From Candidatus Poribacteria bacterium (GTDB taxonomy: Bacteria > Poribacteria > WGA-4E > PCPOR2b): DNA of 64,000 nucleotides. The first letter of the stretch is position 1, and every line of letters begins with the position of its first letter. Positions 20,642 through 22,282 of this stretch are shown here, piece after piece. The stretch covers positions 480,001 to 544,000 of the forward strand of contig OZ240245.1 of assembly GCA_965198175.1 (NCBI GenBank), read 5' to 3'. The translations under genes were made by a program, and so were the position numbers. A model generated the notes under the pieces. The model searched no databases and was not told the origin of the DNA. It saw only the letters and a list, made by a program, of their open reading frames with translations.

Positions 20642-22282
20642 ATGAAAACTTCCAAAAACAGAATCGCCCTCAATCTTGACGACACAGCAGAAGTGTCTGT
20701 CAAAGGCTTCATCGCCCCGATTGAATACACGCAATACAACTTCCATGAGAGGTGGGACGCATTGGCGAATCTACGGGTTGCTGAACCAGAAAAGCAGCAT
20801 TCTGCGTCAGTTTTTCGTGCGTTTCTCCCGTCCGAAGCGGTTACGGTCGGTGAGGTCTGGCAAATTGAAAAAGAGGGTGCGCTGGCGTTGCTGAGGCAAC
20901 TTCACCCCAATCCACATCTGGATATGCACATTGATGCAGGGGAATCCTGTGGATTGTGGACATGTCTGCGCGCTTACAATGATCAATTCGCCCACGTCGT
21001 GTTCCGCGTTCATGCAGAATTTGCCTTGAAGGACGGTTGGTTCACACCCTCCCAATTCGCCGGGCATCTAGTTATAGATCGAATTGAAGAAAAGATGGTG
21101 TTTTTCCAGATGCGCGTTCCTGCTGAAGGTGTAATGAACTTCGATGCTAACTGGGAAACAACAGAAGAAGGGTGGGAACCGTCTATGATAATTACCGATA
21201 CCGGCTTCTGTCCACGAATGGAATTGCGTGCCGGTATAGAACCCGGTGTACAGAATCTTGAATTCATAGAAGCCATTACAGAAGAAGAAGCAGTGCACAA
21301 ACTGACACTGTGTTTTTACGAATCGCAGCAGATTCATTGGGTACCGCTGGACGAAGCGCTGGAGATTGCACAATTAGAGCAAAAACCCGTTCACGCCATT
21401 TCAGTAGATGGGCCGTTGGCTGACGAGTCATGCTGAGGGAGTGGCAAATTATTGAGAGCAGTTGCTCTCTCACATGACCGGGTCATCAAATTTTTGAACG
21501 AAAATTTCATCAACACATGGGCAACCAATGCCGAATTAGGGCGTAAACCCCAATTGCGCGACCCTATTGCCAAGAGACGCGACCGCGAATCCAAGGTCTT
21601 TGACACAACGTCCCCCTTGGTACAAGCAATCATGAAGGGCTGGAAGAAAGATTCACCGGTGGATTGTTTAGTCATATCGCCCGACTTTGAACTGAAAGGG
21701 CAGCTTCCCCTCAATGAATACTCCACGCACGCTGTAGATGGTGGGAGAACGGCGGCAGAAAATTACCGACTGTTTCTCGTGGAATCCCTAGAAGGGAAAC
21801 TCCCCGGGTTGAGTCGAGAAAACTCTTTCAGATATTTATTTGGCGAGGTAGAGGATAGCTCCGTCGAACCGCTCTTAAGTGATTTGAACGTTGTCCTCAA
21901 CAGTATACAACCCTCGTTGGAAGTATTGGATATTTTTCGGACCCCAGCGGCGGATTGTCAGGATTACACTGTCGTAAGAATTGATGTTACAGCGTTTGAA
22001 ACCGGTGGGACACTAGCGATTGACATCCGAGTTGGCAGCGCTGAACAAGGAGGTTCCTTCTATTTGTACGATGGCGACGTCGAAGTCCCCACGGGGGGCG
22101 GGGAACGTTACTATCACTCGTTTGCCAATGCTACGGGTGTGCCTCCCAAGGGAGCAGCGCAAATCCAGTATCCTTTCTATCGGGGTCAGGTGTTTAAGCT
22201 GGTAGTTGCCGCGGAGGTAAAGAATGGGGAAGGGAGTGTCAATGCCTTTCAGGCAAGAATTTCTGTAGGGCAGACAAACTGA
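20642..22282 (+). CDS. Selenoprotein N (SELENON)-like selenoprotein; TGA 21434-21436 read as Sec
   Basis: ORFs 20639-21436 and 21452-22282 share a frame and are separated only by TGA, giving DGPLADESC-U-GSGKLLRAVALS; hairpin downstream of the UGA. Confidence 0.85.
21454..21469 (+). promoter_or_regulatory. Candidate bacterial SECIS hairpin
   Basis: GAGAGC-AGTT-GCTCTC, starting 17 nt after the in-frame UGA. Confidence 0.6.

Follow-up and report, generated by a model that had tools for sequence, protein, structure and literature searches.

Two adjacent open reading frames (ORFs) in the genome of a Candidatus Poribacteria bacterium are confirmed to be one real selenoprotein gene that annotation has mis-split at an in-frame TGA. 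The gene very probably encodes a soluble, three-domain selenoprotein of the selenoprotein N (SelN) superfamily, which is decoded by SelB and acts as a thiol/selenol oxidoreductase. Comparison of the sequences confirms it as a bacterial architectural variant of SelN.

Mutations in SELENON cause congenital myopathies, and the protein is poorly understood; to our knowledge, the chemistry of the conserved SelN core is poorly defined. Animal SelN is described as an oxidoreductase of the ER that has an SCUG site (PMC12839072), and SelN is treated as metazoan-specific in PMC7016017 and PMC3473315. We found no paper joining Poribacteria with SelN or "selenoprotein N", and SelN appears in no title or abstract of the Poribacteria papers on selenoprotein or selenocysteine, one of which is on hydrogenases. 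Likewise, term searches of the main text of the prokaryotic selenoproteome papers PMC13188914, PMC13326102, PMC2398784 and PMC12013277 did not find SelN or the SelN-like family, and no NCBIfam model matches the family.

One reading frame interrupted by TGA

The window, i.e., the whole stretch of DNA analysed here, comprises 64,000 nucleotides (contig OZ240245.1, positions 480,001 to 544,000), and positions below are those of the window. The first half ORF (20639..21436, + strand, 265 aa) has a TTG start, with an ATG at 20642, and ends at the TGA at 21434-21436. The second half ORF (21452..22282, + strand) lies in the identical frame. Translation of the TGA as U gives 547 residues, reading ...VHAISVDGPLADESC-U-GSGKLLRAVALS...FLNENFINTW, with S-C-U-G-S-G-K around the selenocysteine (Sec) and with FRVHAEF and PRMEL on its N-terminal side. 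Thus, the two ORFs are one frame interrupted by a TGA, and the motifs quoted in the preliminary description, which had proposed a SelN homologue hidden as two ORFs, were found exactly as given there. The features of the gene are as follows.

20639..22282, + strand: complete SelN-like selenoprotein gene (547 codons, single in-frame TGA, terminal stop TGA at 22280-22282)
20690..21235, + strand: N-terminal beta-barrel domain (residues 18-199; folded alone by AlphaFold with pLDDT 90.7; carries FRVHAEF and PRMEL)
21326..21799, + strand: predicted thioredoxin-like domain with the C-U pair (residues 230-387; VIA-align to DsbH 2ju5, Z 11.9)
21428..21439, + strand: redox motif S264-C265-U266-G267 (Sec codon TGA at 21434-21436)
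21454..21469, + strand: bacterial SECIS-like hairpin GAGAGC-AGUU-GCUCUC (6 bp, 4-nt loop, starting 17 nt after the UGA)
21854..22279, + strand: C-terminal beta-sandwich domain (residues 406-547; PliG 4dzg, Z 11.4; ColG collagen-binding domain 5iku, Z 10.5)

An in-frame TAA (20582-20584) is located 54 nt upstream of 20639, with no start codon in between, which fixes the N-terminus of the protein. Therefore, a signal peptide or membrane anchor is impossible for the window copy. Chance is excluded as the source of the read-through frame, because similarity to animal SelN lies on both sides of the TGA and the TGA is conserved in relatives, as described below.

Similarity to animal selenoprotein N

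Searches of Pfam, NCBIfam and PDB sequences with the read-through protein gave no matches at E up to 1, and since no PDB chain was matched by the bacterial protein at this threshold, no solved relative turned up. A profile was then built from 15 full-length relatives. In an exhaustive search, it matched 761 representatives at E ≤ 0.001, and the animal records matched included a hagfish "Selenoprotein N" (3.3e-28), a wombat EF-hand protein (4.9e-30) and a Nematostella EF-hand protein (4.4e-34), the last in one stretch (profile positions 68-394) that crosses the Sec site. In cluster look-ups of the profile matches, all named members were animals, two molluscs among them, and no additional bacteria appeared.

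BLASTP of the window protein against the Nematostella, wombat, hagfish and human records gave E values from 3e-31 to 4e-28, with 28-30% identity over 242-358 columns. The best alignment (3e-31) had 30% identity over 358 columns; the human Selenoprotein N record scored 5e-29, and the others 3e-28 and 4e-28. Every alignment passes through the C-U site, so that the similarity covers both sides of the TGA. In the animal records, the counterpart of S264-C265-U266-G267 is ...DDQSC(U)G/SG...; the human one reads CC there, U being passed on as C. Together, the profile and BLASTP matches to animal records support the proposal of a SelN-type Sec homologue lying across two ORFs.

The window protein and animal SelN (SELENON, SEPN1) have in common a beta-barrel plus thioredoxin-like core with Sec in S-C-U-G, as well as the motifs FR(I/V)HAEF, P(Q/R)MEL, LR and (I/V)NTW. 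Animal SelN also has an N-terminal TM segment and an EF-hand, according to PMC12839072, whereas the window protein has neither. No hydrophobic run or N-terminal TM anchor was found in it, and 17 residues precede its first barrel strand. No EF-hand was matched in it by Pfam, and the animal EF-hand region, which is N-terminal to the aligned core, has no bacterial counterpart. Conversely, the C-terminal beta-sandwich of the window protein is absent from animal SelN. The alignment, the AlphaFold model and the fold search thus bear out the preliminary description, in which the TM anchor was said to be lacking and a beta-rich C-terminal domain to be added; the EF-hand is absent too. The two also differ in the SECIS, which is of the bacterial type and inside the coding region in the window gene and in the 3'-UTR in animal SelN; in location, the window protein having no signal peptide and being presumably cytoplasmic, whereas animal SelN is in a lumen; and in copy number, with up to 14 matches per genome in the bacterial family versus one gene in most animals.

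Predicted domain architecture

The AlphaFold model of the window protein, built from a 38-row alignment, has three domains (pLDDT 85.2, pTM 0.73). For the N-terminal barrel, the best solved match was 2fr2 (Z 6.1) and Foldseek gave none at E ≤ 0.001. Since no match exceeded Z 6.1 and the top ones are generic beta-barrels, this domain was left without a fold assignment. Its residues R123, P137, P161 and N167 are invariant (33 bacterial plus animal rows).

For the domain of residues 230-387, the solved matches next to DsbH are the C-terminal domain of a DsbD-type protein (3f9u, Z 11.7) and the ER proteins AGR3 (3ph9, Z 11.2), ERp18 (1sen, Z 10.8) and AGR2 (within Z 10.6-11.2). In the model, C265-U266 lies between strand 251-256 and helix 270-276, which are the first strand and the first helix. 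The predicted structure is therefore a thioredoxin fold in which the redox pair sits at the N-terminal end of helix 1. The fold is alike in the DsbH, DsbD-C-terminal-like and AGR-ERp18 oxidoreductases (Z 10.6-11.9), whereas the site of the window protein is a vicinal C-U in place of CxxC. In addition, the thioredoxin domain of the window protein, unlike these proteins, is fused to a SelN-specific beta-barrel and has no Pfam or PDB sequence match.

The C-terminal sandwich resembles collagenase collagen-binding domains at Z ~10, and paralogues contain one or two copies of it. Other family members join either the core or the sandwich to ECF sigma factors (P0134, P0217 and P0159), LRRs (P0239), BlaR1 (P0225) or a propeller-peptidase (P0175), and the sandwich is also joined to S9 peptidase proteins.

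Selenocysteine machinery and genetic code

The genome, which is one contig of 4.92 Mb, was checked for Sec machinery as the preliminary description had suggested, and selA, selB, selC (tRNA-Sec) and selD were all present. With the similarity on both sides of the TGA, neither of the two outcomes that the preliminary description had named as refuting its reading was observed. The genes for selA (527 bits), selB (a 644-aa ORF) and tRNA-Sec (76.6 bits, anticodon TCA) are side by side at ~1.803-1.806 Mb. The selD gene (378 bits to TIGR00476; L011 = G000:C1:3840277-3841203, - strand) has one in-frame TGA inside; therefore, the selenophosphate synthetase of this genome is probably itself a selenoprotein.

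TGA terminates 8 of the 19 window ORFs of at least 300 codons, including the upstream ABC exporter gene (stop at 20537-20539) and the SelN-like gene itself, and is therefore a normal stop here. A reading with code 4 or code 25 is thus not tenable. These results suggest that the SelN-like gene uses ordinary bacterial Sec decoding.

A conserved SECIS-like hairpin downstream of the TGA

Forty sequences (36 distinct) were aligned over the TGA with 3 nt of upstream and 51 nt of downstream sequence. Among the 36 distinct sequences, 97.2% of the hairpin cells were paired, compared with at most 82.4% in slid-partner controls, and the loop consensus in the aligned relatives was A-G-G/U-U. One pair was compensatory (27-36; GC 22, AU 7, GU 4), and another pair also varied (GU 20, GC 11, AU 4). 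The observed pairing, double changes and covariation score were reached by none of 500 shuffles, which were exceeded on three of five measures. In more distant paralogues, a hairpin occurred at the identical offset in 11 of 13 MFE folds, with the loops GGUC, AGGU or AGUU. These results point to the hairpin at 21454-21469 as a SECIS-like element and a candidate bSECIS for SelB. Part of its conservation is protein constraint, since the hairpin lies inside the conserved LRA(G/V)xLS codons.

The local fold was modestly more stable than shuffles (z -1.96), 9 of 200 of which folded equally well. Rfam returned no family for 21380-21560, giving just chance-level miRNA and snoRNA rows (E 0.94-3.2). A longer, two-helix SECIS model that includes the UGA was rejected as a poorer fit (88.2% paired), with pair 10-36 broken in 25 of the 36 sequences.

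Distribution of the family and conservation of the TGA

Of the 176 genomes searched in the phylum, 131 had SelN-like matches at E ≤ 1e-10, and a single genome had as many as 14, so that the earlier suggestion of a rare gene is not borne out. By family of the phylum, 110 of 112, 10 of 11 and 10 of 28 genomes were positive, and the other eight families had no match at this threshold in the 176-genome search. Exactly one TGA was present in 150 of 150 among the matches listed, four of which also have a TAA; the search gave 923 further matches beyond these 150. In five more distant genomes, the TGA was present in all 12 matches that cover residue 266 and in 0 of the 7 that cover only other parts.

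The genome of the window has three SelN-like genes in all, each with one TGA. The second paralogue (with its neighbours at L070:8082-10064 and L070:10751-16645) has two C-terminal sandwich domains. It adjoins a 946-aa fusion of an ECF sigma factor with a PD40 propeller and an 860-aa WD40 protein, and a 580-aa ankyrin-repeat protein lies upstream; the window copy has no neighbour like these. The third paralogue belongs to a second subfamily, which reads ...VWGALDDESC-U-ANGK and is nearer to the animal SelN motif than the window protein. Many genomes of the phylum contain tandem arrays, in which at least three SelN-like genes are arranged head-to-tail at ~1.6-1.9 kb spacing, each with its own TGA and hairpin (L019, L020, L034 and others; G151:C1:3898412-3903899).

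A word-seeded search of databases gave 160 relatives of the window protein, two of them labelled Candidatus Poribacteria and fourteen roughly full-length (526-606 aa). Many of the relatives are 300-310 aa long and terminate exactly at ...DE[AS]C, and many others, of 350-420 aa, start just past the TGA. The full-length ones (P0002-P0015 and P0122) have G, W or T in the Sec column, which is apparently a systematic annotation artefact of gene calling with genetic code 25 or 4. These findings expose a systematic annotation error, in which one gene becomes two or is translated with table 4 or 25, and bacterial selenoproteomes would gain a large, previously unlisted family. One gene call, P0016, starts just past a Sec codon, continues through the C-terminal domain and then a second SelN core, and stops at ...DESC; this suggests either a two-core polypeptide with a pair of Sec codons or tandem genes without an intervening stop.

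Homologues with Cys in place of Sec were found in metagenome protein records, reading DESCCGSGK (P0132, P0134, P0142 and P0151) or DEACCATGK (P0178), and a profile search from the Cys forms gave 16 proteins. In a scan of species genomes with an alignment of the Cys forms, the sole locus returned, in a Verrucomicrobiales MAG, was rejected as a chance CDESCCGS inside an unrelated ORF.

Decoding of the TGA and proposed function

If the TGA were a true stop, the locus would be a pseudogene or would give two separate polypeptides from the two ORFs. Gene callers with table 11 do split the gene, hundreds of database entries are halves, and a TTG is located 15 nt after the TGA. However, the TGA is kept in the 150 of 150 among the matches listed and in the 12 of 12 further ones, across genera and at 34-87% identity; decay would not preserve it across homologues. 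The GSGK between the TGA and the TTG is conserved as protein in 47 of 47 loose-pattern matches and aligns with SGR of the animal proteins, the Cys homologues run unbroken through the site, and the genome contains the Sec machinery. A true stop is thus hardly credible. It is also very improbable that the UGA is read as Trp, Gly or Cys, via an alternative code or near-cognate suppression, rather than as Sec. The G, W or T at the Sec column of public full-length calls would fit such a reading, and some pipelines apparently used tables 25 or 4. Against it, TGA ends 8 of the 19 long ORFs of the window, this gene included; tRNA-Sec, selA, selB and selD are in the genome; the codon is beside Cys at the active site of a thioredoxin fold and aligned with the Sec of animal SelN; and a conserved hairpin follows the UGA at a fixed distance.

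For the preferred reading as a Sec-containing protein, we infer the selenium insertion, redox chemistry, substrate and location as follows. The small hairpin 17 nt past the UGA at 21434-21436 would recruit SelB with Sec-tRNA(Sec), leading to the insertion of selenocysteine. In the product, Cys265 and Sec266 would be vicinal and occupy the active-site position of a DsbH/AGR-like thioredoxin fold, and the protein would act as a thiol/selenol oxidoreductase, alternating between a selenenylsulfide and a reduced form. The N-terminal beta-barrel, which is conserved with animal SelN, may present or bind the substrate, and the C-terminal beta-sandwich may be a binding module. The window copy would act in the cytoplasm, because it has no signal peptide or TM segment, whereas other members of the family are exported or joined to membrane sensors.

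Among the bacterial selenoproteins with a thioredoxin fold whose decoding uses SelB and a bSECIS are the Sec-containing Prx, Trx-like and SelW-like families. In them, too, a stem-loop whose apical loop contains G/U follows an in-frame UGA and, as for the window gene, there are Cys homologues at the Sec site and a genomic selABCD set. Soluble and intron-free, the large family of bacterial homologues, with its natural Cys forms, lends itself to structural work, substrate trapping and genetics.

Origin of the family

A tree was inferred with an IQ-TREE quick search from 55 rows and 375 columns. Of the rows, 33 are genes of the phylum (74 before reduction at 80% identity), 10 are Cys forms and 12 are animal; one of the animal rows was labelled as such by its EF-hand-like N-terminus. 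The tree is unrooted and contains no sponge sequence. All 12 animal rows group in a single clade (SH-aLRT 100, stem 0.95) with the inner order of the species tree, and the bacterial genes are not nested among them. The bacteria form at least five deep lineages, including Poribacteria A, Poribacteria B and a Cys clade. Subfamily A (99) is sister to the Cys clade (93), subfamily B (99) is apart, the long Cys branches P0151, P0178 and P0187 stand apart as well, and the basal bacterial forks are weak (75). Overall, we lean towards bacterial antiquity of the family, and the origin of a selenoprotein regarded as metazoan-specific is reopened.

The preliminary description had considered a host-to-symbiont transfer plausible. 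This unrooted, sponge-less tree, with the animals in one clade on a long stem and the bacterial genes outside it, does not support such a transfer. That a sponge symbiont captured the gene from its animal host and then multiplied the copies would be consistent with the concentration of the family in a sponge-associated phylum, the identical gene pieces in "sponge metagenome" RNA libraries and the presence of SelN in sponges stated in PMC3473315; a very early transfer from an animal is also compatible with an unrooted tree that separates animals from bacteria. However, the animal clade (100) mirrors the species tree on its stem of 0.95 with no bacterial gene nested inside, and there are at least five deep bacterial lineages, Cys forms included. 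Furthermore, the fusions to ECF sigma factor, LRR and BlaR1 are bacterial only, and transfer would cost a eukaryotic Sec gene its 3'-UTR SECIS. Capture from the host therefore appears unlikely.

We tentatively propose instead, as a possibility still short of an even chance, that SelN is of bacterial origin. It would have begun as a barrel-plus-thioredoxin module for redox sensing or repair, which occurs by itself, in exported form or linked to ECF sigma factors by a membrane segment, and would have been acquired once by the metazoan stem lineage via horizontal transfer, with the TM anchor and EF-hand being added. If a bacterial origin is true, the expansion of the Sec form in sponge-associated Poribacteria would be a symbiosis-linked radiation of an ancestral system, and the SelN of Poribacteria would be a tractable model for a human disease protein.

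Genomic context and expression

The neighbours of the gene in the window are AcrB, a HEAT-repeat protein, a DUF5916 protein, an ABC exporter, an IS1595 transposase, a KilA-N protein and an MFS protein, and no operon logic or functional hint came from these neighbouring genes. A scan for promoters and terminators gave counts no better than those of shuffles.

RNA contigs identical to 21411-21744 (334 nt) and 21051-21339 (289 nt) were found in two "sponge metagenome" libraries of one study, and neither spans the TGA with 31 nt on each side. They may be a faint sign of expression; they could also be DNA carry-over, and the parts of the gene that they leave uncovered carry no meaning.

Upstream, between the gene of the AcrB-type pump and the ABC exporter, are the genes for the HEAT-repeat protein (13929-15329) and a DUF5916/CBM9-like protein (16358-18598). 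Downstream, a patch at 24395-28202 contains two small DUF6814-like ORFs (- strand), an IS1595-family transposase (26552-27436, + strand) and the KilA-N protein (27393-28202, - strand), and is likely a mobile element.
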